This document shows, in pieces, positions 1,621 to 38,673 of a stretch of DNA of 59,761 nucleotides. A program made the position numbers and the translations under genes. The DNA comes from Solirubrobacterales bacterium. Its GTDB lineage: Bacteria > Actinomycetota > Thermoleophilia > Solirubrobacterales > 70-9. The stretch is from positions 1-59,761 of the forward strand of contig DASSBJ010000124.1 of the NCBI GenBank assembly GCA_035698885.1. The letters are read 5' to 3'. Below the pieces are notes generated by a model, which saw only the letters and a program-made list of their open reading frames with translations, was not told the DNA's origin and ran no database searches. How positions within the stretch are numbered: position 1 is the stretch's first letter; every line of letters begins with the position of its first letter.

Positions 1621-2015
1621 ACCGAGCGGCTTTCGGCGGTTGGGTATCAAAACCTATGTTCAGCAGGTGCACTTCGTGACAGGATCGGCGAATGATCGAG
1701 CCACGCTCGCCAGCCACCCCGACCAACGACGAGACAGAGACGCTCGAGGAACCGGCCAGCTCCGCGTCGGCGAGCTCCGATGAAACGGGCGACGAATCCT
1801 TTCCCGCCAGCGATCCCCCCGCCGTCTGGACCTGGGAAGTCAACAGCGTGCGGAGGGGTTAGGGACGAGGTGACCCCGGGTGGGTTGCCACGGCTTGTCC
1901 GCTCAGTTCTGGCTGCTCATCCTGGAGCCGGCTACCGGAACGGGTGGCGAGATGATCGCCGCGGTGCTACTTTTCCCAATGTTAGTAGGAAAAATATGAC
2001 GCGACCGGAAGTTTG

Positions 2016-4019
2016 ATGGCAGACACCGCGCTCCAACGATCGGCACCGCAGGCAGACCGCACGACGACCGATCCCCATGCCCCTGGTTTCGGTATTTCCG
2101 GAGACGAGCTTTTCCGCAAGTGGTCGCGTGGCATCGTCGGAGCCCTCGTCGGCGGCGCTATCGGCTTTGCGTTGGTCGTCGGGCTGAGAGCGATATCGGG
2201 CCTGCCGACCTTCCAGACCGAACAGACCGGCTACCCCCATGTGGTTGTTCCGGTCATCACCGGAGCTTTCGGCTTCTTGGTCGGCTTCGGCGCGATCACC
2301 TACTGGTTGCGCTGGGCGCTCGGGATGCCGACCCAGCCGGAGGACCATGCCGAACACGGGGCAGCTACCTGGCGCGACTACTTCACCTTCAACACCGATC
2401 ACAAGGTCATCGGGATCCAGTACATCGTCACCACCTTCTTCTTCTTTTTCATCGGTGGCCTGCTGGCGATGCTGATCCGAGCTGAGCTCGCCCAGCCGGG
2501 GACGCAGATCGTCGACGCCGCGAGCTACAACTCGATCTTCTCCGCGCACGCGGCGATCATGATTTTCCTCTTCGTGATCCCGGTCTTCGCCGGGATCGCC
2601 AACTACGTCCTGCCGCTGATGATCGGCGCCCCGGATATGGCCTTCCCGCGGCTGAACGCGCTCAGCTTCTGGCTGCTGGTCCTGGCGGGCATCATCTTCA
2701 TGTCGAGCTTCCTGGTCCCGGGCGGCGCCTTCGACGCTGGCTGGACCGGCTATGCGCCGCTCTCGACCGGGGCGCCGCTCGGGCAATCCTTCTTCAACAT
2801 CGGCGTCCAGTTCGCCGGCTTCTCCTCGATCCTCGCCGCGCTCAACTTCCTGGTCACGATCATCACCATGCGCGCCCCAGGGATGACCTTCTGGCGGATG
2901 CCACTGCTGGTCTGGGCCAACCTCGCGACTTCGCTGCTGGTGATCGCCGCGACGCCGTTCATCGCCGGAGTGCAGTTCATGGTCCTGTTCGACCGCATTC
3001 TGCACACCAACTTCTTCCAGTTCGCGGCCGGCGGCGACGTCGTCAGCTACCAGCACATCTTCTGGTTCTACTCCCACCCGGCGGTCTACATCATGATCAT
3101 CCCCGGCTTCGGGATCATCAGCGAGGTCATCTCCACCCACTCGCGAAAGCCGATCTTCGGTTACCGGCTGATGTCGCTCTCGCTGATCGCGATCATCGTC
3201 CTCAGCTACTCGGTCTGGGCCCACCACATGTTCGTCGCCGGCATGTTCAGCTGGCTGCGGGTGCCGATGATGATGACTTCGGTCCTGATCGCGGTCCCGA
3301 CCGGGATCAAGATCTTCTCCTGGCTGGGCACGCTCTACTTCGGCAAGATCAACCTGCGCTCGACCTCGATGCTCTTCGCGCTGGGATTCATCGGCAGCTT
3401 CATCCTCGGAGGCATCAGCGGCGTGATGATCGCGATGGTCCCGATTGACATCCACGTCACCGACACCTACTTCATCGTCGCCCACATCCACTTCGTCCTC
3501 TTCGCCGGCTCGGTGTTCACGATCTTCGCCGGCGTCTATTACTGGTTTCCGAAGATCACCGGGCGGATGTATGACGAGAAGCTGGGTCGGTTTCACTTCT
3601 GGCTGACGCTGATCGGCACCTGGGGAACCTTCATCCCGATGCACTGGATCGGGATGGACGGGATGCCGCGGCGGGTCGTCGACTACGCGACCCAGTTCGG
3701 CGAGTGGAACCTGTTGATCTCGGTCTTCGGCTTCATGCTCGGGGCCGCCCAGCTGGTCTTCCTCTACAACATGATCGTCAGCTGGCGCTTCGGCCCCCGC
3801 GCCCCGGCCAACCCTTGGCGGGCGAAGACGATCGAGTGGCAGGTCTCCTCGCCGCCGCCGCGCTTCAACTTCGAGCGGATTCCGCGTGTCGTCGGCGGGC
3901 CCTACGAATTTGGGATTCCCGGCGCCCGGCACGCCCTGATGAACGAGTCAGAAGTTGCTCCCGCCCAGGCTTCGACCACCGCCGTCGCGGTGCCTGCAGG
4001 CGAGTCGTCAAAGCAATGA
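2016..4019 (+). CDS. ctaD: Cytochrome c oxidase subunit I (heme-copper oxidase, A-type) with ~110-aa N-terminal extension
   Basis: Signature segments GIQYIVTTFFFFFIGGLLAMLIRAEL, WFYSHPAVYIMIIPGFGIISEVI and WAHHMFVAGM. ATG at 2016 follows the TTG at 2013. The extension has two extra hydrophobic helices. Confidence 0.93.
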   Translation: MADTALQRSAPQADRTTTDPHAPGFGISGDELFRKWSRGIVGALVGGAIGFALVVGLRAISGLPTFQTEQTGYPHVVVPVITGAFGFLVGFGAITYWLRWALGMPTQPEDHAEHGAATWRDYFTFNTDHKVIGIQYIVTTFFFFFIGGLLAMLIRAELAQPGTQIVDAASYNSIFSAHAAIMIFLFVIPVFAGIANYVLPLMIGAPDMAFPRLNALSFWLLVLAGIIFMSSFLVPGGAFDAGWTGYAPLSTGAPLGQSFFNIGVQFAGFSSILAALNFLVTIITMRAPGMTFWRMPLLVWANLATSLLVIAATPFIAGVQFMVLFDRILHTNFFQFAAGGDVVSYQHIFWFYSHPAVYIMIIPGFGIISEVISTHSRKPIFGYRLMSLSLIAIIVLSYSVWAHHMFVAGMFSWLRVPMMMTSVLIAVPTGIKIFSWLGTLYFGKINLRSTSMLFALGFIGSFILGGISGVMIAMVPIDIHVTDTYFIVAHIHFVLFAGSVFTIFAGVYYWFPKITGRMYDEKLGRFHFWLTLIGTWGTFIPMHWIGMDGMPRRVVDYATQFGEWNLLISVFGFMLGAAQLVFLYNMIVSWRFGPRAPANPWRAKTIEWQVSSPPPRFNFERIPRVVGGPYEFGIPGARHALMNESEVAPAQASTTAVAVPAGESSKQ

Positions 4020-4023
4020 TTAG

Positions 4024-4046
4024 TTTGCACACATCGTCTGTGCAAA
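4024..4046. promoter_or_regulatory. Palindromic operator candidate TTTGCACA-N7-TGTGCAAA
   Basis: Perfect 8-bp arms (4024-4031 and 4039-4046) with a 7-nt spacer, 9 nt upstream of the regulator ATG at 4056. Same architecture as the sites at 9428 and 9947. Confidence 0.55.
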
Positions 4047-4055
4047 ACTTGGATC

Positions 4056-4706
4056 ATGGATCTACCGGCCTCGACAGATGACCCGCTGACGCAGCCCACC
4101 CGGGCGCGTATCTTCACCCTGCTGGCGGAGCTGAAGGAAGCGGTGGGGACCGACGATTTGGCGGCTCGTCTCGGCCTGCACCCCAACGGCGTGCGGGTCC
4201 ACCTCGAGCGGCTGCAGGAGGCCGGCCTGGTCGAGCGCCGACAGGAGCGGGCGGGGAGAGGGCGTCCCGGCGACCGCTGGACCGTCGCCCCGGGCGCGCA
4301 GCCCTCTGGCCAACCACCCTCTGCCTACGCCAGCCTGGCGGTCTGGCTGGCCCGTGCCATCCCTGTCGGCCCGACCCGGCTGCGTGAAGTCGAGCGGACC
4401 GGCCGGGAGATCGGCCGGGAGCTTGCGCCGAAGGAGAACGGCGACCCTGCGGAGGGACTGCGTCAGACCCTCGCCGCGCTCGGCTTTCAACCTTCGATGA
4501 AGGTGAAAGCCGACGGCGGCCTGACCTGCCGTCTCGATAACTGCCCCTATCGCGACTCGGTGCGCGAGAACGCCGATGTCGTCTGCACTCTGCACCGCGG
4601 GATCACGGCCGGTGTCCTCGAGAAGCTCGATCCGAAGGCCAAGCTGACCGGCTTCGAGCCTCACGATCCCGATCGGGCCGGCTGCCTGATCGAGGTCTCC
4701 AGGTGA
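4056..4706 (+). CDS. ArsR/SmtB-like winged-helix transcriptional regulator with Cys-containing C-terminal domain
   Basis: N-terminal PTRARIFTLLAE...LGLHPNGVRVHLERLQEAGLV...GRGRPGDRW is HTH-wing like. The C-terminal part has CRLDNCPY, VVCTLHRG and GCLIEV. Confidence 0.8.
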   Translation: MDLPASTDDPLTQPTRARIFTLLAELKEAVGTDDLAARLGLHPNGVRVHLERLQEAGLVERRQERAGRGRPGDRWTVAPGAQPSGQPPSAYASLAVWLARAIPVGPTRLREVERTGREIGRELAPKENGDPAEGLRQTLAALGFQPSMKVKADGGLTCRLDNCPYRDSVRENADVVCTLHRGITAGVLEKLDPKAKLTGFEPHDPDRAGCLIEVSR

Positions 4707-5974
4707 GCAGCTCCACCGCTCGCCACTGCCGCCAAGAACCCCGTCCGCGTCGCGAAGGCGACTTGCGCCCGACCGATGTCGTCGGCGCCTTCTTCATCTG
4801 TGGGCTCGCCTTTCTGCTCTCCGCGGCAGCGGTCGGTATCGCCCAATGGATCGCCCCGTGGCCGTGGGGCCACTGGCTTGCGCTGCATCTGGCGTTTGTC
4901 GGTGGCGTCTCGCAGCTGGTCCTCGGCGCCACCCAGTTTTTCGCCGGTGCCTTCCTCGCCACCGATCCTCCTCCGCGAGCTCTCATCCGCGCCCAGATCC
5001 TCTACTGGAATGCCGGTGCGATCCTGCTTGCGATTGCCGTTCCCGAGCATGCCGAGACGCTGATCTGGCTCGCGGCCGGCCTCTTGGTGGGGGGCCTGGT
5101 GGCCTGGGCGGCGGCGATTGCCGCGATGCGGCGATCCTCGCTGCGACGCTCCCCGTGGGCAACCCGGTGGTACGTCAGCGGGGCCTGCTTCCTCGGGCTG
5201 GGGATGGTGGCGGGGTCACTGCTGGCTCGCGGCGTGCCCTGGAGTCAGGGCGATCTCCTCGGGGCCCATATGTCGTTGAACCTGGCGGGCTGGTTCGGTG
5301 CGGCGATCGTCGGCACCCTGCACACCTTCTTCCCGTCGCTGACCCAAACCCAGCTTCGCTTTCCCCGCCTGCAGGGGGTCGCGTTCCTCGCCTGGACCGG
5401 AGGCGTGGCGGCGCTCGCCATCGGCTACGGCTGGGCACTCGAACCGCTCGCCCTCGCCGGCTGGCTCGGACTCTGCGCGGGTGCGATCGCGCTTCTCGTC
5501 AACATCGCCGCCTGCCTGCGCGAGGCGACTCGGCCGCTTTCGCTCCCGGCGCGAATCGTCGCGGCGGCCCAGCCCTTCCTTCTCGCCGGGCTCCTGGTCG
5601 CCACGGTTGCGGCGATCGCGGACGGCCCCTCGAATGCTCTGAGCGGCTCGACCCGGACCACCGTCGGCACGCTTTTGGTCAGCGGCTGGATCGGCCTCAC
5701 CGTGCTCGGCTCGCTGACCCACCTGCTTGCCGTGGTCGTCAGGGTCCGCGGCGGCTTCGCGGCACGGATGCCGGCGGCACGACCACGGCTCGACGGCTTC
5801 ATCGCCGCCCTGGCAATGGCTGGAATCGCAGCGATGGCGCTCTCCCAGTCGTTTGGCGTCGACGGACTGCGAGGTCCCGCGGTCGCGGCACTGCTCCTGG
5901 CCTACGCCATGCTCGCCGGCCGCGTCGCAATCCTTGCCGCGCGGGTCCTCCTCCGAGCTCGCCCGAGCCTCTGA
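4703..5974 (+). CDS. Polytopic integral membrane protein (about 10-12 helices), function unknown
   Basis: GTGA overlap with the regulator stop. Long runs of hydrophobic helices. The alternative frames are Arg/Pro-rich junk. Confidence 0.7.
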   Translation: MSSSTARHCRQEPRPRREGDLRPTDVVGAFFICGLAFLLSAAAVGIAQWIAPWPWGHWLALHLAFVGGVSQLVLGATQFFAGAFLATDPPPRALIRAQILYWNAGAILLAIAVPEHAETLIWLAAGLLVGGLVAWAAAIAAMRRSSLRRSPWATRWYVSGACFLGLGMVAGSLLARGVPWSQGDLLGAHMSLNLAGWFGAAIVGTLHTFFPSLTQTQLRFPRLQGVAFLAWTGGVAALAIGYGWALEPLALAGWLGLCAGAIALLVNIAACLREATRPLSLPARIVAAAQPFLLAGLLVATVAAIADGPSNALSGSTRTTVGTLLVSGWIGLTVLGSLTHLLAVVVRVRGGFAARMPAARPRLDGFIAALAMAGIAAMALSQSFGVDGLRGPAVAALLLAYAMLAGRVAILAARVLLRARPSL

Positions 5975-6405
5975 TGAAACGGGCAGAGGCGCTGCAGCCG
6001 CTCTCGCGCGATCATCTGAAGTCGCTGCTGGCCGCGAAGCGGCTGCGCGAGGCGACCGACGCCGACGCCGCCGGCCAGGACTTCCTTGCCTTCTGGGAGT
6101 CCGAGGGGCGACACCACTTCCGTGTCGAGGAGGAGGTGCTGCTGCCGGGTTGGGCCTTGCATTGCCCCGTGGACCGCGTCGCGGTGGCGCGGATGCTGGA
6201 GGAGCACCTGGCGATCCGGCGCGCGGCCCTGCGTGCGGCGGAGGCGGAAGCCTCACTCGCAGAGCTGCGAGACCTGGGCCGGCTCCTGGACGACCACGTG
6301 CGCTTCGAGGAGCGTGAGCTCTTCCCGATGGTCGAACGGGCCCTTGAGCCAGACGACCTCGCACGCCTCGCGATCGCGATCGAGCGGGCGGAGGAAAACC
6401 CGTGA
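5974..6405 (+). CDS. Hemerythrin HHE cation-binding domain protein
   Basis: ATGA overlap with the upstream stop. Motifs HHFRVEEEVLLP, LEEHLAIRR and HVRFEERELFP are typical His/Glu di-iron ligand helices. Confidence 0.8.
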   Translation: MKRAEALQPLSRDHLKSLLAAKRLREATDADAAGQDFLAFWESEGRHHFRVEEEVLLPGWALHCPVDRVAVARMLEEHLAIRRAALRAAEAEASLAELRDLGRLLDDHVRFEERELFPMVERALEPDDLARLAIAIERAEENP

Positions 6406-6785
6406 GCAAGGGCGCGATGGAGATCCGCCTGAAGCGTGCCTACGAGCCCGCCGAGCCTTCTGACGGCTATCGAATCCTGGTCGACCGACTCTGGCCACGC
6501 GGCCTGTCCAAAGAGCGAGCAGAGCTCGATGAGTGGGACCGGGAACTGGCACCGAGCACCGAGCTGAGGCAGTGGTTCAGCCACGAGCCAAGCCGCTTTC
6601 CGGAGTTCCGACGACGCTTTTGCGAGGAGCTCGGGGAGCACCGCTCGGCGCTGGCGGGGCTGCGCCGGCGGGCCCGCGAAGGCACCCTCACCCTCGTCTA
6701 CGCGGCCAAGGACACCGATCACAACGACGCCGTCGTCCTCGCAGAGGTACTGAGGCGCGGATTGCCACGCGGGGGACCGCGCTGA
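6402..6785 (+). CDS. DUF488 family protein
   Basis: GTGA overlap. Motifs RAYEP...GYRILVDRLWPRGLSKE and LTLVYAAKD..HNDAVVL match my recollection of DUF488. Confidence 0.8.
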   Translation: MSKGAMEIRLKRAYEPAEPSDGYRILVDRLWPRGLSKERAELDEWDRELAPSTELRQWFSHEPSRFPEFRRRFCEELGEHRSALAGLRRRAREGTLTLVYAAKDTDHNDAVVLAEVLRRGLPRGGPR

Positions 6786-7735
6786 CTGGCGGCGAGCGGA
6801 GCCCGGAGCTTTCGCGGGAGCGCCGTTTCTCGATCGAGCCATCGCCGCCGTTTCGGCTCGACCTGACGGCATGGGCGTTGCGGCGGCGACCTCACAACGA
6901 GGTCGACCGCTGGGATGGACACGTCTTCCGCCGCGCGCTGTCATTCGGCGAGGGTGCCATGGCTCTCGCGGTGACCCAGGCCGGCTCGCCGGACACTCCG
7001 AGGCTGGAGGTGGTGCTCAGGGGCGACACGATCGATCGCGGCGCCGAAGACCAGGCACGGCAGACGCTGGAGAGGCTCCTCGGACTCGGGACCGACCTAT
7101 CTGGATTCGCGAGGATGGCCGCATCGGAACCCTCCCTCGAGGGCCTGGTCGCGCGGATGCGCGGACTGAAGCCGCCGCGGTTCGCGACCGTCTTCGAGGG
7201 ACTGGTCAACGGCATTGCCTGCCAGCAGCTCTCGCTCGACGTCGGAGTGCATCTACTCAATCGGCTCAGCGCGGCTCATGGTCGATCGGACGGCGCTGGA
7301 GAGGATCGGCTTCACACGTTTCCCGGCCCGGCGGAGCTCGCGACAGTGGATCCGGCTGATCTCAAGCGCCTCGGGTTCAGCATGGCGAAGGCGCGGACGA
7401 TCGTCACCAGCGCGGGGGGGATCGTCGATGGCGATCTGGATCTCCAGGCCTTGGAGGATGCCGGAGACGCCGAGGTGCTCGAGCGGCTGACGGGCCTGCA
7501 CGGCGTCGGCCGCTGGACCGCGCAATACGTGATGCTGCGTGGACTCGGCCGCCTACACGTCTTCCCTGGCGACGACGTCGGGGCTCGTAACAAATTGAAG
7601 GCCTTTCTCGGGCTTGACGGGCAGCTCGACTACGAGCGGGTCGAGCAGGTCGTTTCGCGCTGGGCGCCGTACGGCGGTCTCGTCTACTTCCACCTGCTGC
7701 TCGACTCGCTTTCGCGGGCCGGCTTGGTGGCCTAG
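6782..7735 (+). CDS. DNA-3-methyladenine glycosylase II-like (HhH-GPD superfamily); start codon unresolved
   Basis: AlkA_N-like FSIEPSPPFRLDLTAWALRR, then FEGLVNGIACQQLSL and LTGLHGVGRWTAQYVMLRGLGRLHVFPGDDVG (HhH-GPD). The only in-frame candidate after the DUF488 stop is CTG at 6782, in a CTGA overlap. Confidence 0.72.
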   Translation: MTGGERSPELSRERRFSIEPSPPFRLDLTAWALRRRPHNEVDRWDGHVFRRALSFGEGAMALAVTQAGSPDTPRLEVVLRGDTIDRGAEDQARQTLERLLGLGTDLSGFARMAASEPSLEGLVARMRGLKPPRFATVFEGLVNGIACQQLSLDVGVHLLNRLSAAHGRSDGAGEDRLHTFPGPAELATVDPADLKRLGFSMAKARTIVTSAGGIVDGDLDLQALEDAGDAEVLERLTGLHGVGRWTAQYVMLRGLGRLHVFPGDDVGARNKLKAFLGLDGQLDYERVEQVVSRWAPYGGLVYFHLLLDSLSRAGLVA

Positions 7736-8115
7736 CTGGACTCCGAGCGCTTCGCGGCTCGGCGGCGGGCGTAGAGCTTGTCCTGAATCGTCATCGAGCC
7801 CGGATGATTCTCGCCGGGCCAGGGTGCCAACAGCAGGAACAAGCGTGCCTTGGAAATGGCGAGGACCTCATGTCGTTCGCCCGGAGCGAATTCGCTCAGA
7901 AGCCCGACGCCGCCACTTACGCTCTCCCCCGAAGCGGTGCTGACCTCGACCTCGCCGTCGATGACCAGGAGCCATGCGCGCTCGTGCACGACATGTTCGG
8001 CAAGTCCCTCACCGGCATCCAGATCGAGGACGATGCCCCGGGCGGCGTCATGGGTCGAGAGGATCTCGGGCAAGCGGGGCTTGAGATCCAGCGACCTGAG
8101 CTTCCAGCTATTCAT
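7732..8115 (-). CDS. Cupin domain protein
   Basis: Motifs GLAEHVVHERAWLLVIDGEVEV...GERHEVLA resemble cupin motifs 1 and 2. Convergent 4-nt overlap with the glycosylase stop. Confidence 0.7.
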   Translation of the reverse strand: MNSWKLRSLDLKPRLPEILSTHDAARGIVLDLDAGEGLAEHVVHERAWLLVIDGEVEVSTASGESVSGGVGLLSEFAPGERHEVLAISKARLFLLLAPWPGENHPGSMTIQDKLYARRRAAKRSESS

Positions 8116-8138
8116 TCGCGCTCCCTCTTGAGTTGACT

Positions 8139-9383
8139 CTAAGCGGCCGCGGTGGCAGCGAGGTCGAGGCTGGCTCTCACCGCGCCGCGCATGAGGTCGA
8201 GGCCGGCCAGGTCGATCTCGGTCGAGCTATCGAGCACCGCCTTGGAAGGCTCCAGACTCTCACCGGCAAGGGAAGCGAGCAAGGGGGCCAGGTATCTCCC
8301 CGCGACCTTCCCCCGCGGGAACCAGAGTGCGTGGTCGGTCACCGCTGAGGTTTCGCCCTGGCCACCCTCCAGCTCGTTCCGCAGATATCTGGGTCGTTTG
8401 CCGGTCAGCAGGAGCCCGCGCAGGGTTGGGTGAAAAGGCTCTGGCTCGACCTCCTCATTGAGCTGCGCGGCGATCGTGGCGGCAACCGCGTCAGACTGTT
8501 GGGCGGCGAGCCCACCCTGCTTGACCGGGAAGTCGGTCGCGTCCCCAGCGGCAAATACATCGGGTAGGCCGCGCACGCGACCGTGCTCGTCGACCGGAAT
8601 GAATCCCCGCTGATCGCGCGGTATGCCGTCGATCTGGCGCCCTTCGTAGCTGGGCATGCTTACTACGCGATCCGCAGGGATCGAATCGCCGGGGGTCACG
8701 GACAGCTTGCCCCCCTCGAATCGAGTCGGGTAACTGCCGGTCTTGATCTCTATCCCTCGATCGGCGAGGAGCGCAGCGACCTGATTGCTGGCGTTCGGTC
8801 CGAATAGCTGCAGCGGTACATCCTCCGGGGTGACGATGACCAGCTCGGCGTTCCCGACTCCCAGTTCGGCGAGATGCGCCGAGGTCATCAGGGCAAGCTC
8901 GTAGATCGGAAGCGGCCAGCCGAAGCCGGCCGGCATCGTGAACAGCACTCTGCGTACCGCGCCTTCCTCCAGCTCCTTGAGGAGGCGGTCGAATCCCTCA
9001 TGACCGGCCGGTCCCCAGAAGGTGATCGCGCCGGGAACCGACCAGTGCATCTTGGCTCCGCAGGCGATCAAGAGCTTGTCGTAGCCGATGCGGCGGCGTC
9101 GACGCATCGTAGCTCGATGGAGCTCTGGCTCCACGGATTCGAGTCCTTCGGCCCGGAAGAGCGCCCCGTGGCGTTGTGCGATCTCGGCAAGGTCGAATCG
9201 CAGCGCCTGACCGATCCCAAACGGCTCGGCCACCGCCAACGGCCGGTAGACGAACTGGCGGCGCGGAGCATGGATCTCGATCGTGACCCGATCACCGAGC
9301 AGTGCGCGTAGGGCCAGCAGCGCCTCGAGTGCCGCCACGCCCCCTCCCGCGATCAGTACGTGCGTCTTGGCGTCCTCGGTCAT
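8139..9383 (-). CDS. FAD-dependent pyridine nucleotide-disulfide oxidoreductase (SQR/NDH-2-like)
   Basis: HVLIAGGGVAALEALLAL Rossmann motif and FAAGDATDF near the C-terminus. ATG at 9383 is preferred over the upstream extension. Confidence 0.8.
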   Translation of the reverse strand: MTEDAKTHVLIAGGGVAALEALLALRALLGDRVTIEIHAPRRQFVYRPLAVAEPFGIGQALRFDLAEIAQRHGALFRAEGLESVEPELHRATMRRRRRIGYDKLLIACGAKMHWSVPGAITFWGPAGHEGFDRLLKELEEGAVRRVLFTMPAGFGWPLPIYELALMTSAHLAELGVGNAELVIVTPEDVPLQLFGPNASNQVAALLADRGIEIKTGSYPTRFEGGKLSVTPGDSIPADRVVSMPSYEGRQIDGIPRDQRGFIPVDEHGRVRGLPDVFAAGDATDFPVKQGGLAAQQSDAVAATIAAQLNEEVEPEPFHPTLRGLLLTGKRPRYLRNELEGGQGETSAVTDHALWFPRGKVAGRYLAPLLASLAGESLEPSKAVLDSSTEIDLAGLDLMRGAVRASLDLAATAAA

Positions 9384-9427
9384 CGCTTGGCCTCGAGTCG
9401 ATTGTGGGTTTTCGGGGTGGCCATCTA

Positions 9428-9452
9428 TTTTACACATTGATATTGTGTAAAA
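9428..9452. promoter_or_regulatory. Palindromic operator candidate TTTTACACA-N7-TGTGTAAAA in a divergent promoter region
   Basis: Perfect 9-bp arms (9428-9436 and 9444-9452) in an AT-rich island between the oxidoreductase start (9383) and the OsmC start (9492). Confidence 0.6.
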
Positions 9453-9491
9453 CAAGCAGCCACCTTGGGCTGCTGACCGAAAGGAGCAGCG

Positions 9492-9935
9492 ATGGCCATT
9501 GCAACTCGCGCCGCCAAGACCACCTGGTCAGCCGACCTCGCCAGCGGACACGGTGTGGTCCAAGCCGACAGCGGAGGCTTTGACGATCTCGACGTAACTT
9601 GGGCCTCCCGCACCGAGGCTCCCGGCGGCAAGACCAGCCCGGAGGAGCTCTGCGCCGCGGCGCATTCCTCGTGCTTCGCGATGGCGCTCGCGCTCAAGCT
9701 GGGGGAGTCGAAGATGACGCCGCAGGAGCTGCAGGTGAAGGCGACCGTGACCCTTGCCGAGGTGGACGGTCTGCCGACGATCGTCTCCTCGGTGCTCGAT
9801 GTGGGCGGACGGGTCGACGGGCTCGATGCGGCGGGGTTCGAGGCGGTCGTCGCCGAGGCCGCGGCCCTCTGTCCGGTTTCCCGCCTTTTCAGCGGGGCGG
9901 AGGTGACTGTGGACAGTCATCTTCTGGCCGAATGA
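9492..9935 (+). CDS. osmC: OsmC family peroxiredoxin
   Basis: AAGGAG RBS 5 nt upstream of the ATG. GKTSPEELCAAAHSSCFAMAL carries the two conserved Cys regions of OsmC. Confidence 0.85.
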   Translation: MAIATRAAKTTWSADLASGHGVVQADSGGFDDLDVTWASRTEAPGGKTSPEELCAAAHSSCFAMALALKLGESKMTPQELQVKATVTLAEVDGLPTIVSSVLDVGGRVDGLDAAGFEAVVAEAAALCPVSRLFSGAEVTVDSHLLAE

Positions 9936-9946
9936 ATGGCTCTATA

Positions 9947-9971
9947 ATTTATACAAGCTACCTGTGTAAAA
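9947..9971. promoter_or_regulatory. Second-copy operator candidate ATTTATACA-N7-TGTGTAAAA overlapping a TATAAT box
   Basis: The right arm is identical to the 9444-9452 arm and the left arm matches 7/9. TATAAT at 9943-9948. Lies 20 nt upstream of the ferredoxin GTG. Confidence 0.55.
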
Positions 9972-9990
9972 CAATCGAAGGAGGGGCCCT

Positions 9991-10260
9991 GTGGCTTATG
10001 TGATCAACGAGCCCTGCATCGGCACGAAGGACAACTCCTGCGTGGAGGTCTGCCCGGTCGACTGCATCCATCCCACGCCCGAGGAGCCCGACTACGACTC
10101 GGTGGAGATGCTCTACATAGACCCCGACGAGTGCATCGACTGCGACGCTTGCGTCGAGGCCTGCCCGGTGGACGCGATCACGTCCCAGGACATGGTCCCG
10201 CCGGAGTGGCAGAAGTACATCGAGATCAACGCCGCCTACTACCGCAAGGACAATGATTGA
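9991..10260 (+). CDS. 7Fe-type ferredoxin (3Fe-4S plus 4Fe-4S)
   Basis: GAAGGAGG RBS. AYVINEPCIGTKDNSCVEVCPVDCIHP and CIDCDACVEACPVDAI cluster motifs. Confidence 0.9.
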   Translation: MAYVINEPCIGTKDNSCVEVCPVDCIHPTPEEPDYDSVEMLYIDPDECIDCDACVEACPVDAITSQDMVPPEWQKYIEINAAYYRKDND

Positions 10261-10727
10261 TCGCCGCCACCTCAGCACCCCTGATCGCGGTACACGCCCT
10301 CGCCGCATCGATCTGGGTGGGGGGTCTGGTGGCGATCTTCATCGTCGCTCGGGCAGCTTCAAGCACCCTCCAACCCGCCCAGCGAGTTGAGTTCTTCCGC
10401 GCCCTTGGCCGCTCCTACGGGATCGTCGGCACCCTCGCGCTCCTGGTCGCGCTCGCGACTGGCGCGATTCTGCTCGACGGCCATCCCTGGGACGGTCTCA
10501 TGGTCGCGGCCGCCGTTGTCGCCGGCGCCCTCCTGCTCGCCACCGCCGCGGGGATGGCCCAGGCCAGAGGGATGACGCGGTTGCGCCGTCGGGCGGTGGC
10601 TCAGGTCGGAGGTGAGCCGCTCGACCCACTGGTCCGCCGGGGCGCGATCGTCGCCGCGGTCCTGCGCGCCTGCATCGGCGTTCTAACCCTGGCTCTCGTC
10701 GTGCTCGGCGCGGCGTTGGTGAACTAG
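10257..10727 (+). CDS. Integral membrane protein (4 predicted helices)
   Basis: 4-nt overlap with the ferredoxin stop. Hydrophobic helices throughout. Confidence 0.6.
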   Translation: MIAATSAPLIAVHALAASIWVGGLVAIFIVARAASSTLQPAQRVEFFRALGRSYGIVGTLALLVALATGAILLDGHPWDGLMVAAAVVAGALLLATAAGMAQARGMTRLRRRAVAQVGGEPLDPLVRRGAIVAAVLRACIGVLTLALVVLGAALVN

Positions 10728-10734
10728 CCGAACG

Positions 10735-11430
10735 ATGGACCGGCTGCCTTCATCGGATAGGGCTCAGCCGGTCGGGGAGCCTCTCCTGGCAGCCTGGACG
10801 CTGCCGCTGATCGTGGCGGCGATCGCCGTCGTGATCGTCGGCGGCTTCTACCTCGGCGGGCCGGGCCTCGGCATGGCGGCAGGGGCACTCGCCGCTACCT
10901 CGATCGTGGTGATGGCGGTTCGCCACCCGCCGCGAGGACCGATCGTGCCCGCCTCCCTGCGAGATTTTCGCCACCACCTGCTGGTCGTCGTCAGCGGCGC
11001 CCTCGAGGACGAGCGGGCGATTGAGCAGATCGTCGAGGTGGCCGGAATCAGGGACGTTGACCAAGCTGAGGCGGAGGTTGTGGTCCTGGTGGCCGCTCGG
11101 CATCGGTTCCTCGACCGCTGGGCCTCCGATTCGGACCCCGCGCACGATCAGGCCCAGCGCTGTCTTGTGCTGAGCGCCGCCTCGCTGGCCAAGGCGGGCG
11201 TCGCGACCGCCGCGCGGGTGGGTGACGAGGACATGGTCCAGGCCGTAGAGGATGAGCTACGCACCTTTCCCGCCACGGAGGTGGTCCTGGTGACCGGAGC
11301 TCCCGATTGCGACGTCGCCGGCAACGCCGCGGCATCGGAACTGGATTCTCGGCTTCAAGCGGACTTTCATCACCTGATCCTCGATTCACATCGGCCCCCC
11401 GTGGGCGGACCGGAATCGACCATCCGATGA
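10735..11430 (+). CDS. Membrane-anchored protein with USP-like alpha/beta domain
   Basis: Two N-terminal helices, then HLLVVVSGALEDERA...EVVVLVAARH...ARVGDEDMVQAVEDELRTFPATEVVLVTG, resembling a universal-stress-like fold (inference). Confidence 0.6.
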   Translation: MDRLPSSDRAQPVGEPLLAAWTLPLIVAAIAVVIVGGFYLGGPGLGMAAGALAATSIVVMAVRHPPRGPIVPASLRDFRHHLLVVVSGALEDERAIEQIVEVAGIRDVDQAEAEVVVLVAARHRFLDRWASDSDPAHDQAQRCLVLSAASLAKAGVATAARVGDEDMVQAVEDELRTFPATEVVLVTGAPDCDVAGNAAASELDSRLQADFHHLILDSHRPPVGGPESTIR

Positions 11431-28955: not shown

Positions 28956-30469
28956 TTAAGTCTCCCCCTCCCGCTCCGACACCGCCGCCTGATCGAACGT
29001 AGCCATCTCACGGAGCACGCCTGCCGCAGTCTGGACGACGGGAATTGCCAGACAGCCTCCCGTTCCCTCGCCAAGCCGCAAGGAGAAGTCCAGCACCGGC
29101 ACGAGGCCAAGGTGCTCCAAGACAGCTGCCGCTCCCGGCTCGGTGGAGCGGTGGCCTGCAATGCACCGCGCCGCGACGCCCGGCGCCATCGCCTCGGCAA
29201 CGAGCAGCGCAGCCGCCGTTATGACGCCGTCGACGACGACTGGAACTCCCCCTGCGACGCCGCCGACGATGAAGCCCGCAAGGGCGGCGATCTCGAGGCC
29301 GCCCACCTCCGAGAGGATGGAGACTGGATCGAACCATCCGCGCGTTCGGCTGGCGGCGCCCTCGACGATGCTCGTCTTGCGAGTCAGCATCTCTCGTCGA
29401 TGCCCGTCCCCCGTCCGGTCACGGCCGCCCCGTCCTTCCCGGTGAAGGCGGCGATCAGCGCCGCCGACGGCGTCGTGTTGCCGATCCCCATGTCGCCGGT
29501 GACAAGAAGCCGGTTCCCTTGTGCCAGGAGCTCGGCGGCAATCGAGGCGCCTGCGTCCAGCGCCGCCCGCGCCTCGGCGACACTCATCGCCGGGCCGATC
29601 GAGAGGTCCGCGGTGCCGGGGCGTACGTTGCGCTGAATTACCCCGTCGAGGCCGGACACGTCGGCGGCGACCCCCACGTCGACGATGTGGACGCTCGCCC
29701 CGACCTGGCGCGCGATCACGTTGATCGCGGCGCCGCCCGCGACGAAGTTGGCGACCATTTGGGCCGTCACCTCCTGCGGCCAGGGCGTGACGCCCGAGGC
29801 GACGACCCCGTGGTCGCCCGCGAACACGGCGACTGCGGCGGGCTCGGGCCGCGGCGGTGGGCACTCGCCGGCGATCGCCGCGAGCTGGACGCCGAGCTCC
29901 TCCAAGCGCCCGAGAGACCCGGCCGGCTTGGTGAGACGGTCGTGGTGCGCCAGCGCCGCGCTTGCGGCCTCCTCGTCCAGGGGGGAAACGCGCCGGCATG
30001 CCTCGGCGAAGGGGCCCGAGCGGGCATGGGCGAAGCGCTCGATCGCCTCGGCCACGCCCCGGTCGACGGCGACGAACTCGACTCCGGCCGCGATGGCGGC
30101 GCCCCTATCCACCGATGCGTTGCCGACGTAGACCGACCTCTCCGGCGCTGCCCCAAGCCGGCGCAGCGCCTCGTTCAAGGACGCCGGGTCGGGCTTCTCC
30201 ACGCCGACGTCGATCGATGTCACGATCACCTCGAGCAGCCCGTCCAGGCCCACGGGGTCGAGCAACACTCGCACCTCGGCCTCGCGCATCGCGGCCGTGT
30301 CCGTGACCGCGGCGATGCGGTGGTGCTCCGCCAGCACGCGCAACGTCTCGACCGCTCCCGGGCGAAGCTCCGCCTTCAGCTTGGCGACGGGTGTGCCGGG
30401 CGGCGCCTCCTCGACTAGCGTGCCACCTACGTCGAACAGGAATGCGTCGATGCCGTCAAATCGATTCAT
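28956..30469 (-). pseudogene. cobT: HAD-like hydrolase fused to nicotinate-nucleotide:DMB phosphoribosyltransferase; frameshift near 29386-29397
   Basis: N-terminal AFLFDVGGTL HAD motif I variant. The CobT core is LTKPAGSLGRLEEL...TGDMGIGNTTPSAAL...TGRGTGID, then TGA at 29384. The rest (EMLTRKTSIVEGA...LRLGEGTGG) continues in the -1 frame to 28956. Confidence 0.8.
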
Positions 30470-31374
30470 GGGAATAACCTCCGAGTGCGTTTGCGAGCTT
30501 TTCGAGACCGTTTTGAATCCGGGACGGCGATACGCGCGCCGTGCGGAATGCCGAAAGAAGTCGTGTCGCGCACAAGGACGCCGCGGGGCACCAGCCAGTC
30601 GCGCAGGCCAGGGGCTTCGCGGACGAGAACGAAGTTGGCGTCCGAGGGGTCGGCACGAAGCCCGTGCGCGGCGAGCAGGTCGACAAATTCCGCGCGCAGC
30701 GTCGCCAGCGACTGTGCCCACCCGCGCAGGTCGGCGAGCGCCAGCAGCTCGGGGACGAGCGCGCAGGCCAGGGCGTTCACCGACCAGCGCGGCTTGCGCT
30801 GCCGCAGCCGGCACGCCAGCTCGGGGTCGGCGCAGACGACGTAGCCGATCCGCAGCCCCGGACAGGCGTAGAGCTTGGTGAGCGACCCGATCGTCACCTC
30901 GTCCCCTCGGGTCCAGCGTCCCGTGGCCAGCTGGTAGAAGGCCTCGTCCCAGACCGCCGCCTTCTCCCCAGCGCCAGCGAGGTGGCCGCTTGGGTTGTGC
31001 GGGTTGGAGCGCCAGCGTGGGGCATCGGCCCGCAGCTCGTGGAGGTGGCGGGCGTAGAGCGAGAAGTCCGGCTCATCGACCCGCCCGATCGGGAGCAGCG
31101 CCGCGACTAGGGCGATCGCCTCGGCGCCGCCGTTGGTCAACACGACCCGCTCGGCGTCGGCGCCCAGCGCCTCAGCCAGCGCCGCCGTCGCGACCGCCTC
31201 GTCGGGGTAGCGGCGCAGCTCATCGAGGGACTTCGCGGCCAGCCGCCCAACGTCGGGCGCAACGGGATTGAGGCTTTCCGAGAGGTCGAGCATCTTCTCG
31301 GGTGGGACGCCGAGGCCTGCCGCGACGGCGGCTCCGTCTCCCCCGTGGGGGCCGACCGGCAGTGCGCCGCTCAT
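30466..31374 (-). CDS. cobD: L-threonine-O-3-phosphate decarboxylase (class I/II aminotransferase fold)
   Basis: The ATG at 31374 overlaps the restored cbiB stop (ATGA). NPHNPSG and SLTKLYACPGLRIGY (PLP lysine) motifs. Confidence 0.8.
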   Translation of the reverse strand: MSGALPVGPHGGDGAAVAAGLGVPPEKMLDLSESLNPVAPDVGRLAAKSLDELRRYPDEAVATAALAEALGADAERVVLTNGGAEAIALVAALLPIGRVDEPDFSLYARHLHELRADAPRWRSNPHNPSGHLAGAGEKAAVWDEAFYQLATGRWTRGDEVTIGSLTKLYACPGLRIGYVVCADPELACRLRQRKPRWSVNALACALVPELLALADLRGWAQSLATLRAEFVDLLAAHGLRADPSDANFVLVREAPGLRDWLVPRGVLVRDTTSFGIPHGARIAVPDSKRSRKARKRTRRLFP

Positions 31375-32298
31375 CGCCGCCACCCTGGACGAACACTCGC
31401 CCCGACGGCGATCGCGAGCAGTGCTCCGATCAGAGCCAGTTCGACGTCGGCACAGAGGTGAACTGCCCCGCTTGATGTCCGCTGGCAAGGGTCGAAAACC
31501 CCTGCCAAGCAACGGGCGTCGCTCGACGCGCTCGTCGTAGCGCAGCGTCCCGCCCAGCTCCACTCCGAGCGCCGCCGCGAAGGCGGCCTCGGCCACCCCG
31601 GCATTCGGCGAGGGATGCGCAGGCGCGTCTTCGCGGACTGCGCAGCGGATCGCACCTGCTGCCCGCGGCCGCACCGTCCCCACCAGCGCTGCCGTCAACC
31701 TGGCAGGCAGGAAGTTCGCGGCGTCATCGAGTCGCGCGCTGCACCATCCGAAGCGCTCGTATCGAGCCGAGCGGCTCCCCACCATCGCATCCATCGTGTT
31801 GAGCGCCCGGTAGCCGGCAGCGCCGGCGGAGCCTCCGGCGAGCGCCCAGCAGGCAGGTGCCACCACGGCGTCCACGGTGTTCTCGGCGACTGACTCGATC
31901 GTCGCCGCGGACACGCCGCGCTCGTCGAGCTCGCTCGGATCGCGTCCCACCAGCGCGGGAAGCAGCGCCCGCGCGGCGTCGAGATCCGAGCGGGTCAGCG
32001 CCCCGTGAACCTGAAGCGCCGCTTCACGCAGACCCCGCCCGGCCGCGCTCAGCGCCACCGAGGCCATCGTCATCCGCGCTGCCGATCCGCCCGCCACCCC
32101 GAGCGCGAGGCCGGTCGCCGCGTAGGCGGCGCCCGCCGCCCGGCGCGGCGAGTAGAGGCGCGCCTCGACCGCCGCCATGAGCCGCCCGAAGAAGGCCACC
32201 GGATGGACGACGGCAGGAGGCTCGCCGAGTAGGCGGTCCGCCAGCAGCCCCGAGGTTGTCGCGAGGGCGCGCCGGGCGAGGGCGCTGCGATCCCCCAT
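31371..32298 (-). pseudogene. cbiB: Adenosylcobinamide-phosphate synthase; one extra base in a G4 run (plus-strand C run 31466-31469) fuses it to cobD
   Basis: CbiB-like LLADRLLGEPP...HPV..FG and HPSPNAGVAEAAFAAALGV. After ADIKR the annotated frame turns Arg-rich. The -1 frame gives a hydrophobic last helix AVHLCADVELALIGALLAIAVG and a TGA at 31371. Confidence 0.8.
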
Positions 32299-33089
32299 CA
32301 CCGCCCTCCCGCCAGCGCGACGGCAGCCACGAGCATCGCCAGCTCGGTCAGCTCGACGGCGGCTCCGAGCGTGTCGCCGGTGATGCCACCGAGCCAGCGA
32401 GCGAACGCGGCGCCCAGAGAGACGGCAAGGATCGCCGCGCAGGCGGCCAGGATGAGCCCGTCGAGACCGGTCGCCAGCACGGCGATCAGGATCGCGATGG
32501 CGGCTGCCGCGGCGGCTCGTGCCCAAGCGCTCGCCGCGAGCGAGCGAGCCAGTCCCTCTCGGGGTCGGGCGTAGGGGAGAGCCGCCGCCAGCGGCACCGG
32601 AACCGCGCGCGAGAGCGCCCCGGCCGCGACCGCGAAGGCCAGGACTTGGCCATCGCGGGCGAGGGTCGCGATGGCGGCTGCCTTGACCAGGAGGTCGAGC
32701 GCGATCGCGACGGCTCCATAGGCGCCAATCGCGTGGTCGCGCATGATGTCCAGCGCGTGGTCGCGCGAGCGCGCGCCGAGCGCGTCCGCAGTGTCGGCCA
32801 GGGCGTCGAGGTGCAGTGCCCCCGTCAGGAGAGTCCCTGCGGCGAGTGCGAGCCCGGCCGCCACGAGCGGCGATAGCGGCGTGGCGAGACCCACCGCGAT
32901 CCCTCCCACCACGGCGCCGAGGCCGGCGCCGACCAGCGGAAAGGACGGTCCCGCCCGTGCGACGTCGTCACCGTCGAGCGAAAGCCGTCGACCGACCGGA
33001 ACGCGGGTGAGGAACGCGAGCGCGGCCACCGCGCCCCGCAGCTCCGCCCAGCGCCGAGGCGGGACGATCTGCTCGCGGATCGCGCTCAC
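32298..33089 (-). CDS. cobS: Adenosylcobinamide-GDP ribazoletransferase (cobalamin synthase)
   Basis: LAFLTRVPV and LHLDALADTADAL motifs. Polytopic. GTGA/ATGA overlaps at both ends. Confidence 0.85.
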   Translation of the reverse strand: MSAIREQIVPPRRWAELRGAVAALAFLTRVPVGRRLSLDGDDVARAGPSFPLVGAGLGAVVGGIAVGLATPLSPLVAAGLALAAGTLLTGALHLDALADTADALGARSRDHALDIMRDHAIGAYGAVAIALDLLVKAAAIATLARDGQVLAFAVAAGALSRAVPVPLAAALPYARPREGLARSLAASAWARAAAAAAIAILIAVLATGLDGLILAACAAILAVSLGAAFARWLGGITGDTLGAAVELTELAMLVAAVALAGGR

Positions 33090-33625
33090 CGCAATCCCTC
33101 GGCGAGCGAATCGGCCGGCTCCAGCTCAAGCGCCCGCCCGGCGACGAGGAGGAAGGCCCGATCCGCCGCCGCGGCCCAGATCGCGTTCACCCGCCCGAGA
33201 AGATCGCGGTACTCGCGGCCCAGGGGATTGTCGGGGACGAGGCCGAGCCCCACCTCGTTGGTGACGGCGACCGTCAGCCCCGGCCGAGCCGAGGCCGCAG
33301 CGGCCGCGGCCGCTGCCCGGGCCTCCGCCTCCTCAGCCCCGAGCCGCTCGAGGGCATTTGCTGTCCACAACGTCAGGCAATCGACGAGGAGGCAGTGATC
33401 GCCGTCCACCGCATCGATCGCCTCGCGTAGGCGAAGGGGCTCCTCGATCGTCCGCCAGGACCCGGGGCGCTCGCGCCTGTGCCGCGCGATCCGCGTTTCC
33501 ATCTCCTTGTCGCCGGGCTGTGCGGTGGCGAGGAAGACGACCGGTGCATCCTGTTCGGAGCCGAGCTGCACGGCCAGCGCGGACTTGCCGCTTCGCGCGC
33601 CGCCCGTCAGCAGGACGAGGGCCAT
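33086..33625 (-). CDS. cobU: Adenosylcobinamide kinase / adenosylcobinamide-phosphate guanylyltransferase
   Basis: LLTGGARSGKS P-loop, IARHRRERP and VTNEVGLGLVPDNPLGREYRDLLG. Confidence 0.88.
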   Translation of the reverse strand: MALVLLTGGARSGKSALAVQLGSEQDAPVVFLATAQPGDKEMETRIARHRRERPGSWRTIEEPLRLREAIDAVDGDHCLLVDCLTLWTANALERLGAEEAEARAAAAAAAASARPGLTVAVTNEVGLGLVPDNPLGREYRDLLGRVNAIWAAAADRAFLLVAGRALELEPADSLAEGLR

Positions 33626-34203
33626 CAGAAGTCGAGCCCCCGGCGGGCGCGGATGCCTTTGTCGTAAGCGTGGCGGACCTTGACCATCTCGGTCACCGTG
33701 TCGGCGAGCTCGATCAGCCCACCGGGAGCGTCGCGTCCGGTGGCGACGATGTTCACTTGGGGCGGTCGGCTGCGGATCGCCTCGAGCACGGCGCCCGAGT
33801 CGATCCAGCCCCAGTTCATCGGGTAGGTGATCTCGTCGAGGACGACGAGCTGGTGCTCGCCGGCGGCGATCACAGCCGCGGCCAGCTGCCAGGCGGCCGC
33901 GGCGCGGCCCTCGCTGCGGTCGAGGTCCGGCGACTCCCAGGTGAAGCCGTCGCCGCCCTTCAGCCACTCGACGCCGAGCTGAAGCGCGACCTTCTCCTCG
34001 CCGACCTTCCACTTGTCGGACTTGATGAACTGGATCACGCAGACGCGCCAGCCGCGGGCCACGCCGCGCATCACGACGCCGAAGGCCGCGGTCGACTTGC
34101 CCTTGCCCTCGCCGGTGTTGACGAGGACTAGCGAGCGCGGGCGCCGCTTCGGGGCCGGCGGCGGCTGGGGTGGCCGGGTGCCGGGCTTGCGCGGCTCGCT
34201 CAT
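33625..34203 (-). CDS. cobO: Cob(I)yrinic acid a,c-diamide adenosyltransferase
   Basis: TGEGKGKSTAAFG P-loop, VLDEITYP and MVKVRHAYDKGIRARRGLDF. Confidence 0.88.
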   Translation of the reverse strand: MSEPRKPGTRPPQPPPAPKRRPRSLVLVNTGEGKGKSTAAFGVVMRGVARGWRVCVIQFIKSDKWKVGEEKVALQLGVEWLKGGDGFTWESPDLDRSEGRAAAAWQLAAAVIAAGEHQLVVLDEITYPMNWGWIDSGAVLEAIRSRPPQVNIVATGRDAPGGLIELADTVTEMVKVRHAYDKGIRARRGLDF

Positions 34204-38648: not shown

Positions 38649-38673
38649 AAAAAAACCTCCGCGTCAGCGGAGG
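38649..38673 (-). terminator. Expression-platform hairpin CCTCCGC-tgac-GCGGAGG followed by a 7-U run, abutting the start codon
   Basis: 7-bp G+C stem (38656-38662 and 38667-38673). The 3' arm contains the GGAGG RBS. The U run (38649-38655) runs directly into the ATG at 38648. Confidence 0.55.

Follow-up and report, generated by a model that had tools for sequence, protein, structure and literature searches.

Results

AT-rich palindromes at gene starts

The DNA analysed here (hereafter the window) is a stretch of 59,761 bp from a Solirubrobacterales bacterium (contig DASSBJ010000124.1). Towards its left end lie ctaD, the gene of a 216-residue winged helix-turn-helix (HTH) regulator and that of a 423-residue membrane protein and, farther to the right, a divergent gene pair encoding a flavin adenine dinucleotide (FAD)-dependent oxidoreductase and an OsmC-family peroxiredoxin, followed by a ferredoxin gene (Table 1). 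Three palindromes with shared arms and a spacer of 7 nucleotides (nt) stand at the starts of these genes. The first ends 9 nt before the ATG of the regulator gene. The second is centred on position 9440, practically in the middle of the 99-nt gap (9393-9491, centre 9442) that separates the oxidoreductase and OsmC genes, which start at 9392 on the minus strand and at 9492, respectively. The third overlaps a perfect TATAAT hexamer and is followed by a GGAGG sequence (9980-9984) and by the GTG start codon of the ferredoxin gene. A first-pass annotation of the window had described these sites as AT islands in G+C-rich DNA, one of them centred in a divergent promoter region and another overlapping a TATAAT box ahead of a ferredoxin operon; the positions were verified, and the G+C content of the window is 63-74%.

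The pattern TTTNNACA-N7-TGTNNAAA matches the window at exactly three places, and 100 dinucleotide-preserving shuffles gave no match. When two mismatches were permitted, a single extra match appeared, which is unconvincing. Scored with the position weight matrix described below, operators 1, 2 and 3 reach 32.2, 35.8 and 30.1 bits, and the reversed window contains no match at 10 bits or more. The matrix also picks out a fourth, weaker site (matrix span 1969-1995), 18 nt before ctaD.

Table 1. Candidate operators and adjoining genes in the window
Feature	Position	Strand	Sequence or basis
Operator 0, weak (before ctaD)	1971..1993	.	TTTTCCCA-ATGTTAG-TAGGAAAA; matrix 14.2 bits
ctaD, A-type cytochrome c oxidase subunit I, candidate regulon member	2013..4019	+	Pfam COX1, E 1.7e-149
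Operator 1, autoregulatory candidate	4024..4046	.	TTTGCACA-CATCGTC-TGTGCAAA
SufR/ArnR-like (COG2345) regulator, 216 residues, by motifs and fold	4056..4706	+	HTH_20, motifs, AlphaFold2 and Foldseek fold
12-helix membrane protein, 423 residues	4703..5974	+	Start overlaps regulator stop
FAD/NAD(P) pyridine-nucleotide-disulfide oxidoreductase	8139..9392	-	Pyr_redox_2, E 1.3e-18
Operator 2, divergent oxidoreductase/OsmC	9429..9451	.	TTTACACA-TTGATAT-TGTGTAAA
OsmC-family peroxiredoxin	9492..9935	+	TIGR03562, 138.5 bits (cut-off 85.8)
TATAAT, candidate -10 hexamer of ferredoxin operon	9944..9949	+	Sequence; overlaps left arm of operator 3
Operator 3, before ferredoxin operon	9948..9970	.	TTTATACA-AGCTACC-TGTGTAAA
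FdxA-like ferredoxin, 89 residues	9991..10260	+	Fer4 families; cysteine motifs typical of 7Fe ferredoxin
156-residue membrane protein	10257..10727	+	Weak DUF4149/DUF2269/CopD-like matches; start overlaps ferredoxin stop
231-residue open reading frame	10735..11430	+	No family match

Conservation of the palindrome and its target genes

Conservation of the sites was followed in 80 genome loci, each encoding a regulator relative of 57-99% identity (cited below by their L numbers); the close homologues belong to Solirubrobacterales metagenome-assembled genomes (MAGs), mainly from soil. Upstream of the regulator orthologue, the best palindrome is spaced by 7 nt in 73 of the 80 loci, and 63 of these 73 match 13 or more of the 14 specified bases. 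The orthologous sites usually end about 9-12 nt from the start codon. The conservation upstream of orthologues anticipated by the first-pass annotation thus holds down to 57% identity, with the consensus TTTnCACA-N7-TGTGCAAAAC, in which the arms are conserved and the spacer is free.

A 27-nt position weight matrix was built from 60 distinct orthologous sites. At a threshold of 14 bits or more it finds 181 sites in the 80 loci, as against none in the reversed-sequence control, and its information content is highest at TTT, CACA, TGTG and AAA. A crude mask based on G+C content at third codon positions (GC3) placed about 30% of the sites in coding sequence, at face value a roughly 13-fold enrichment in non-coding DNA. 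The coding share reflects over-extended calls of open reading frames (ORFs): in the per-site listings, a gene start lies 10-70 nt away from nearly every site. The three palindromes of the window are real. The alternative that the matches are chance AT-rich promoter sequence, to which the relatively AT-rich intergenic DNA of high-GC genomes lends some initial plausibility, is refuted for practical purposes by the shuffled and reversed controls and by the preservation of the CACA/TGTG cores and of the exact 7-nt spacer across loci whose flanks have diverged.

Genes starting just downstream of matrix sites were clustered and annotated with Pfam. The regulator itself is the site-adjacent gene in 72 loci, and the 89-residue ferredoxin, the commonest other target, in 55. 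These are followed by ctaD (13 loci), the FAD oxidoreductase (7), OsmC (6), a NIR_SIR nitrite/sulfite reductase (6), a NarG-like nitrate reductase (4), a ScdA_N-hemerythrin protein resembling RIC/YtfE (3), rhodanese and a chlorite-dismutase/HemQ-like protein (2 each), and CtaA and DUF2249 (1 each). OsmC, the oxidoreductase and the ferredoxin, which the first-pass annotation had grouped in one regulon, accordingly keep the site upstream of their orthologues. Its further inclusion of hemerythrin genes fared less well, since no hemerythrin domain was found by Pfam in the ORFs that follow the window ferredoxin, even at E values up to 10; RIC hemerythrin-type genes do carry the site in other genomes.

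Operator 2 is conserved in L001-L003, L005, L009, L045 and L121. At the ctaD site the arms are kept while spacer and flanks have diverged in L001-L003, L005, L008 and L009, and canonical sites precede ctaD in L054 and L062. When metagenome contigs were scanned with the exact pattern, 106 of 120 loci among the matches listed were low-GC chance matches; in the 14 high-GC contigs among those matches, the site adjoins the ferredoxin (4), the regulator, OsmC/oxidoreductase (2), rhodanese or RIC. No earlier description of a TTTnCACA-N7-TGTGnAAA operator or its regulon was found in the literature.

The regulator is a His-type member of COG2345

The regulator matches Pfam HTH_20 and HTH_5. ArsR-type HTH models match residues 11-64 only, below their family cut-offs (33.8 bits against a cut-off of 55 for NF033788), and a sequence search of solved structures likewise matched the HTH only, the best match being the ArsR structure 6j05 over residues 9-68. 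The AlphaFold2 model (mean predicted local distance difference test, pLDDT, of 80) consists of a winged HTH, helices and an alpha/beta domain. Foldseek matched the C-terminal domain to TRAPPC3/Bet3 structures (7b6d, 6aq3, 2pwn and 1wc8), with template modelling (TM) scores of about 0.5-0.6 on the target. The recognition helix reads NGVRVH. Residues 68-71 form an RGRP AT-hook in the loop that joins strands 59-63 and 73-77.

Residues T15, R16, R47, H49, G69-R70-P71, Y91, C158, C163, C177, H180 and C210 are invariant in the alignment. All 80 loci have the R-x-H motif (RRH in 61, RVH in 15 including the window) and xGRP (RGRP in 60). The putative sensor ligands are Cys163-X13-Cys177-X2-His180...Cys210, to which the clade adds Cys158. 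C-X13-C-X2-H is present in 71 of the 80 loci, 65 of which also carry the C-X4 cysteine of the clade. An exhaustive profile search returned 1,761 cluster representatives at E values up to 1e-10; the full-length proteins among the best 150 of them keep the GRP, CP[YF], C-x-x-H and G-C motifs, C-x-x-H in nearly all cases. R-x-H, too, is retained by distant representatives. Cys158 is specific to the clade and is not kept in distant representatives.

The SufR-like COG2345 family has been defined from the structure of Mycobacterium tuberculosis SufR on DNA, obtained by cryo-electron microscopy (bioRxiv 10.64898/2025.12.26.696629, December 2025). SufR comprises a winged HTH with R-R-H in helix 3, an AT-hook, a dimerisation domain and a TRAPPC3-like sensory domain (comparator 1WC8); its [4Fe-4S] cluster is held by C179, C192, E195 and C220, and the Glu is replaced by His in ArnR and its relatives (bioRxiv 10.64898/2025.12.26.696629). 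The SufR structure was not among the sequence matches in the copy of the PDB searched. The window protein has the same three-domain architecture. T19/R20, R50-R51-H52 and RGRP of SufR correspond to T15/R16, R47-V48-H49 and R68-G69-R70-P71 of the window protein, the dimer-interface Tyr96 corresponds to Y91, and C179/C192/E195/C220 correspond to C163/C177/H180/C210, the ligands being matched by spacing. With T-R in helix 1, R-x-H in helix 3, a GRP AT-hook, a Bet3-like sensor, three Cys plus a further ligand and A/T-flanked palindromic operators, the regulator is, on motifs, spacing and fold, a His-type (ArnR-like) member of COG2345.

Two other assignments were considered and rejected. That the protein is SufR proper does not agree with the His at the position of the fourth ligand, where SufR has Glu, with the absence of an adjacent suf operon, or with the score of 20.9 against 178.8 bits for TIGR02702 (SufR_cyano), a match confined to the HTH. 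The first-pass label 'ArsR-like' is correct as regards the winged HTH, which classical ArsR/SmtB proteins have in common with it, and fails as regards a classical metal sensor: at 216 residues the window protein is twice as long as these proteins (about 100-120 residues), it has an AT-hook wing and a Bet3-fold Cys/His sensor domain, NF033788 stays below its cut-off, and no alpha3N/alpha5 metal site was identified. The archaeal regulator MsvR joins an ArsR-type HTH to a V4R/Bet3-like domain, which contains Cys and binds small molecules, and controls oxidative-stress genes. The window protein resembles it in this fusion and differs from it in its Cys motif and in its match to NF053755, which is restricted to the HTH and reaches 22.5 bits against a cut-off of 220.

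Position of the sites relative to candidate promoters

Where the target is the ferredoxin, ctaD or the reductase, the left A/T arm of the site is overlapped by a TAnnnT hexamer, often with a preceding TGn, and a Shine-Dalgarno sequence (GGAGG) with the start codon follows 14-26 nt past the site. A TAnnnT or TGnTAnnnT sequence is found at the equivalent position in most ferredoxin loci. At the site before ctaD, the left arm is overlapped by an extended -10-like element, TGcTACTTT (1965-1973), and the left A/T arm of operator 2 (9426-9432) contains -10-like hexamers in both directions, TATTTT on the plus strand and TAAAAT on the minus strand. The regulator's own site lies 9-12 nt from the start codon and no Shine-Dalgarno sequence intervenes, which suggests that the regulator mRNA is leaderless or has a very short leader. 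In 24 loci, the intergenic region between divergent regulator and ferredoxin genes contains two operators 40-49 bp apart. Examples are L016 270-337, L018 7923-7990 and L026 7923-7991; the ferredoxin-proximal operator of such pairs is TTTTCCCA-N7-TGTGAAAA, with the CCC/GGG flavour of the ctaD site of the window.

Palindromes at such positions might also act as RNA, forming hairpins in 5' leaders or terminators. Any 8-bp palindrome can fold, and two of five folded strands were stabler than their shuffles (z of -2.6 and -3.8). The hairpins are nevertheless weak (-5 to -13 kcal/mol); those of sites 3 and 0 do not outdo their shuffles, and the bases at the variable arm position can pair in just 67 of 141 sites. 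Moreover, none of the sites is followed by a T-run, transcription is predicted to start within the palindrome, a single site serves two divergent genes and no Rfam match was obtained. A function in RNA is therefore very improbable.

A second alternative is that another transcription factor binds the palindrome and that the COG2345 gene is merely part of its regulon. The TGTG/CACA elements bear a superficial resemblance to CRP/FNR half-sites, and in L142 a LuxR-type response regulator is encoded beside a site. The half-sites are, however, everted (CACA-N7-TGTG) relative to those of CRP/FNR (TGTGA-N6-TCACA), and an A/T-flanked core with tracts 20 bp apart agrees with the AT-hook plus HTH mode of SufR. 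In 73 of 80 loci, spanning many clades and genomic neighbourhoods, the site goes with the regulator gene itself, a pattern that usually marks autoregulation. Finally, more distant homologues are preceded by palindromes of the same layout with other cores, TTTATCTAG...CTAGAAAA in L202 and TTTTCCCT...AGGGAAAA in L207, which indicates that the operator core changes together with the protein. Taken together, these observations make a different binding factor improbable.

The proteins encoded at the sites

The 423-residue membrane protein, whose gene directly follows that of the regulator in 24 of the 80 loci, is the probable operon partner of the regulator, as judged from the gene overlap. It has no Pfam or NCBIfam match. 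Its AlphaFold2 model (pLDDT 87) is closest in Foldseek to the cbb3 oxidase subunit CcoN (3mk7, TM score about 0.7) and to NorB (3o0r), and its only invariant histidines are four, His62, His189, His207 and His340. The Pfam model NnrS is weakly matched by 3 of 26 homologues, with a best E value of 0.003. The confident model gives the protein a heme-copper-oxidase subunit-I fold; its likeness to NnrS is distant and weak. Many of the homologues carry the Joint Genome Institute label 'nitrite reductase (NO-forming)', though they lack a cupredoxin domain.

The ctaD product scores 660.8 bits against TIGR02891 (cut-off 670.75) and has an N-terminal extension of about 125 residues. The possibility that it is a disguised nitric oxide (NO) reductase was dismissed, as it scores as an A-type CtaD. 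It looks like an extra, separately regulated paralogue of oxidase subunit I. No subunit II gene was found among the neighbouring ORFs annotated (515-1177, 1249-1620 and the downstream genes). The FAD oxidoreductase shows a weak similarity to sulfide:quinone reductase (SQR), at 57.9 bits far below the cut-off of SQR_III.

The ferredoxin scores 84 bits with FdxA_Actino, below the cut-off. Its gene and that of the regulator are no more than 8 kb apart in 65 of the 80 loci, and often divergent, and the site precedes it in the 55 loci and 4 metagenome contigs given above. In a sludge metatranscriptome, a contig of 260 nt agrees with the ferredoxin gene (9983-10242) but for one mismatch, so that the gene is expressed in situ, and soil metatranscriptomes contain many ferredoxin fragments of 90-95% identity at high depth; the ends of metatranscriptome contigs are not transcription starts and do not bear on the promoter model. 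The 156-residue membrane protein gene follows the ferredoxin gene in 18 loci. The 231-residue ORF, which occurs in 7 loci and keeps its position in L001, L002, L004 and L008, is possibly the third gene of the ferredoxin operon. Neither the annotated genes of the window nor those flanking sites in the loci include suf genes.

Between 5974 and 6944, downstream of the 423-residue protein gene, ORFs overlap on both strands (5974-6405 and 6402-6785 on the plus strand, 6012-6944 on the minus strand); GC3 is high in each of them, and 9 loci conserve the stretch. If it is the plus strand that codes, the operon of the regulator may extend into the gene of an HhH-GPD DNA glycosylase (6533/6878-7735).

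Other features of the window

A cobalamin riboswitch (38724-38861, minus strand) lies ahead of a minus-strand block of B12-related genes (30466-40457), which encode a periplasmic binding protein, a FecCD permease with a Cys-rich CWC domain, and CobQ/CobB-like and CobD/CbiB-aminotransferase proteins. A thiamine pyrophosphate riboswitch (51455-51564, plus strand) is found just before an ORF at 51533-52138, and two tRNA genes are present at 51205-51277 and 57263-57335, both on the minus strand. The minus-strand ORF 47119-49002 encodes 627 residues with several tandem XRE-type HTH_3 domains, an unusual multi-HTH architecture.

Discussion

A model for operator recognition and repression

The palindromes are probably operators of a homodimeric SufR/ArnR-like regulator, the product of 4056-4706 and/or a close paralogue, whose holo form would repress its targets and be relieved by NO or oxidants; I infer the occupancy of the operators by the 216-residue protein, its cluster, the sign of regulation and the signal from sequence. 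The A/T tracts of the operator are 20 bp, or about two helical turns, apart, and each adjoins a 4-bp core. Each monomer would most likely insert its RGRP AT-hook into the outer TTT/AAA tract's minor groove and place its R-x-H recognition helix on the major groove of the adjacent CACA/TGTG. A transcript starting 6-8 nt past the -10-like hexamer would begin inside the palindrome, and a bound dimer would cover both the -10 element and the start point, which is the geometry of a repressor. The overlap of the sites with -10-like hexamers and with the predicted starts of transcription favours a repressing holo form: the [4Fe-4S] protein would be bound and repress the ferredoxin operon, OsmC, the FAD oxidoreductase, ctaD and its own operon. 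Modification or removal of the cluster by NO, or possibly by oxygen, peroxide or iron-sulfur shortage, would release the DNA and induce the regulon.

Autoregulation, as the first-pass annotation proposed it, is suggested by the association of the site with the regulator gene across clades and contexts. The site does stand before the orthologues of the 216-residue protein, which, rather than a paralogue, presumably binds there.

Relation to known regulators

SufR reads an A/T-flanked palindrome by means of its AT-hook and HTH, and the core of the M. tuberculosis operator tolerates mutation (bioRxiv 10.64898/2025.12.26.696629). That operator, ACACT-N5-TGTGA, resembles those of the window, in which the CAC/GTG cores are 2 bp farther apart. 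In contrast to it, the operator core of the window clade is apparently conserved and hence probably read. SufR, which is known from M. tuberculosis, Streptomyces and cyanobacteria, is encoded by the first gene of an autoregulated operon, as the window regulator also appears to be.

ArnR of Corynebacterium glutamicum, a [4Fe-4S] protein with Cys179, Cys193, Cys223 and a conserved His, represses narKGHJI and hmp and comes off the DNA upon nitrosylation (PMC12343034). Like the window protein, it combines a winged HTH with dimerisation helices and a TRAPPC3-like sensor. Its three cysteines, set against Cys163, Cys177 and Cys210 of the window protein, have the same C-X13-C...C arrangement, and both proteins have His at the position of the SufR Glu. 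The likeness extends to an AT-rich operator and to a tie with respiratory nitrate reductase, the NarG gene being divergent from the regulator in L012, L022 and L029, and with NO-related genes. The two systems differ in their operators (GGATTTAATCTAATTAAATAAATCC at hmp for ArnR, TTTnCACA-N7-TGTGnAAA in the window clade) and in their targets: the window clade has mainly the ferredoxin, with ctaD, OsmC and the NnrS-like protein, and no hmp was seen. Also unlike ArnR, the window clade has the extra Cys158, an operator before the regulator gene itself and a different phylum-level lineage (Thermoleophilia).

NsrR, a [4Fe-4S] NO-sensing repressor of the Rrf2 family, offers a functional analogy, its regulons typically including ytfE/dnrN (RIC) and nnrS, and RIC-like and NnrS-like genes carry or follow the operator here. 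Protein family and operator are nonetheless unrelated, and the present protein has no Rrf2 domain.

The nature of the signal

Damage to the cluster by NO and/or oxidants is the most likely derepressing signal, though not a settled one, as judged from gene content. In other bacteria, RIC/dnrN and nnrS belong to the core of NO-responsive regulons (PMC1274295). In the loci studied here, RIC-like genes carry the operator, the operon partner of the regulator is NnrS-like and NarG is divergent from the regulator at the three loci named above. Distant homologues of the His type have a similar setting. In L201 (1580-3738), such a gene forms an apparent operon with that of a NirK-like multicopper protein, and in L202-L206 these genes adjoin hemerythrin-DUF2249 fusions, DUF2249, FeS_assembly_P and CtaA (L202 3001-5160; L205 1553-3666). 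The hemerythrin gene of L202 is preceded by a different palindrome, ATATTTATCTAGTATTAGCTAGAAAATAT.

An alternative keeps the regulator and its operators as described and lets the signal be iron-sulfur or iron sufficiency, oxygen or peroxide, or makes the protein an activator. SufR, after all, is the best-studied member of the family, an OsmC peroxiredoxin, a rhodanese and an iron-sulfur/siroheme reductase are among the targets, and an FeS_assembly_P gene lies near a distant homologue. This alternative is unlikely, since no suf genes accompany the regulator or flank the sites, the fourth-ligand position is His as in ArnR and not Glu as in SufR, and RIC, NarG, NnrS-like, NirK-like and hemerythrin-DUF2249 neighbours are typical of NO regulons; the overlap of the sites with -10-like elements favours repression over activation.

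Several observations weigh against repression by an NO-sensitive SufR/ArnR-like protein as proposed here, the family membership of which is read from motifs, spacing and fold. The main target, the ferredoxin, is itself an iron-sulfur protein, and the target list mixes NO (RIC, NarG, NnrS-like), peroxide (OsmC) and sulfur (rhodanese, SQR-like, sulfite reductase) themes, so that it does not pin down the signal. The overlap with promoters is read from -10-like hexamers only: a scan for consensus sigma-70 promoters found no canonical -35/-10 pair in 1850-4100 or 9300-10100, a scan that requires an Escherichia coli-like -35 box and says little for Actinobacteria. Read-through from ctaD is possible at the regulator's own site, which lies in the 36-nt gap after ctaD. 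The window protein has R-V-H where the family has R-R-H, the middle Arg of which matters for DNA binding by SufR (bioRxiv 10.64898/2025.12.26.696629). Conservation of the CACA cytosines is lower in the non-RRH clade (0.76/0.81, against 0.88/0.96), which is suggestive of co-variation between protein and DNA, albeit confounded by phylogeny.

Paralogy is a further complication. At least five MAGs encode two paralogues of the regulator, 55-73% identical to each other and associated with the same operator type (L002/L024, L013/L045, L007/L069, L026/L044 and L049/L051). The window-like locus L002 shares its MAG with L024. A 65%-identical paralogue is present in the MAG of a 99%-identical relative. 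One type of paralogue gene, that of the window, stands after ctaD and before the membrane protein gene, and the other forms a divergent pair with a second ferredoxin gene. The paralogues could cross-regulate, and either protein might occupy a given site.

Implications for the COG2345 family

By the account of the sole family-wide study, only SufR (iron-sulfur cluster assembly) and ArnR (nitrate reductase and hmp) have known targets within COG2345, and thousands of members are unassigned (bioRxiv 10.64898/2025.12.26.696629). The present locus gives a third branch of the family a concrete operator, with four sites in the window and about 180 in related loci, and a conserved candidate regulon centred on the ferredoxin and a terminal oxidase. 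The well-conserved operator core makes it a good system for studying how AT-hook and HTH combine in specificity, which is apparently low in M. tuberculosis SufR. The 423-residue protein, unannotated and with the predicted heme-copper-oxidase fold, is a candidate NO-related enzyme.

A bolder proposal, which I advance tentatively, is that Solirubrobacterales (Thermoleophilia) use a third, undescribed functional branch of COG2345 as an NO/redox sensor in place of NsrR or NorR. This branch would combine a His-type regulator bearing an extra Cys with an operator code of its own, TTTnCACA-N7-TGTGnAAA. Three proteins would make up its core module: the regulator, a highly divergent membrane protein with a heme-copper-oxidase fold (NnrS-like), and a small 7Fe ferredoxin. 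To this module, ctaD, NarG, NirA/SirA, RIC and OsmC would have been recruited in a lineage-specific manner. If this is true, the membrane protein would represent a novel type of heme protein that handles NO. The locus also points to how NO or redox stress may be sensed in an abundant and little-studied group of soil Actinomycetota.

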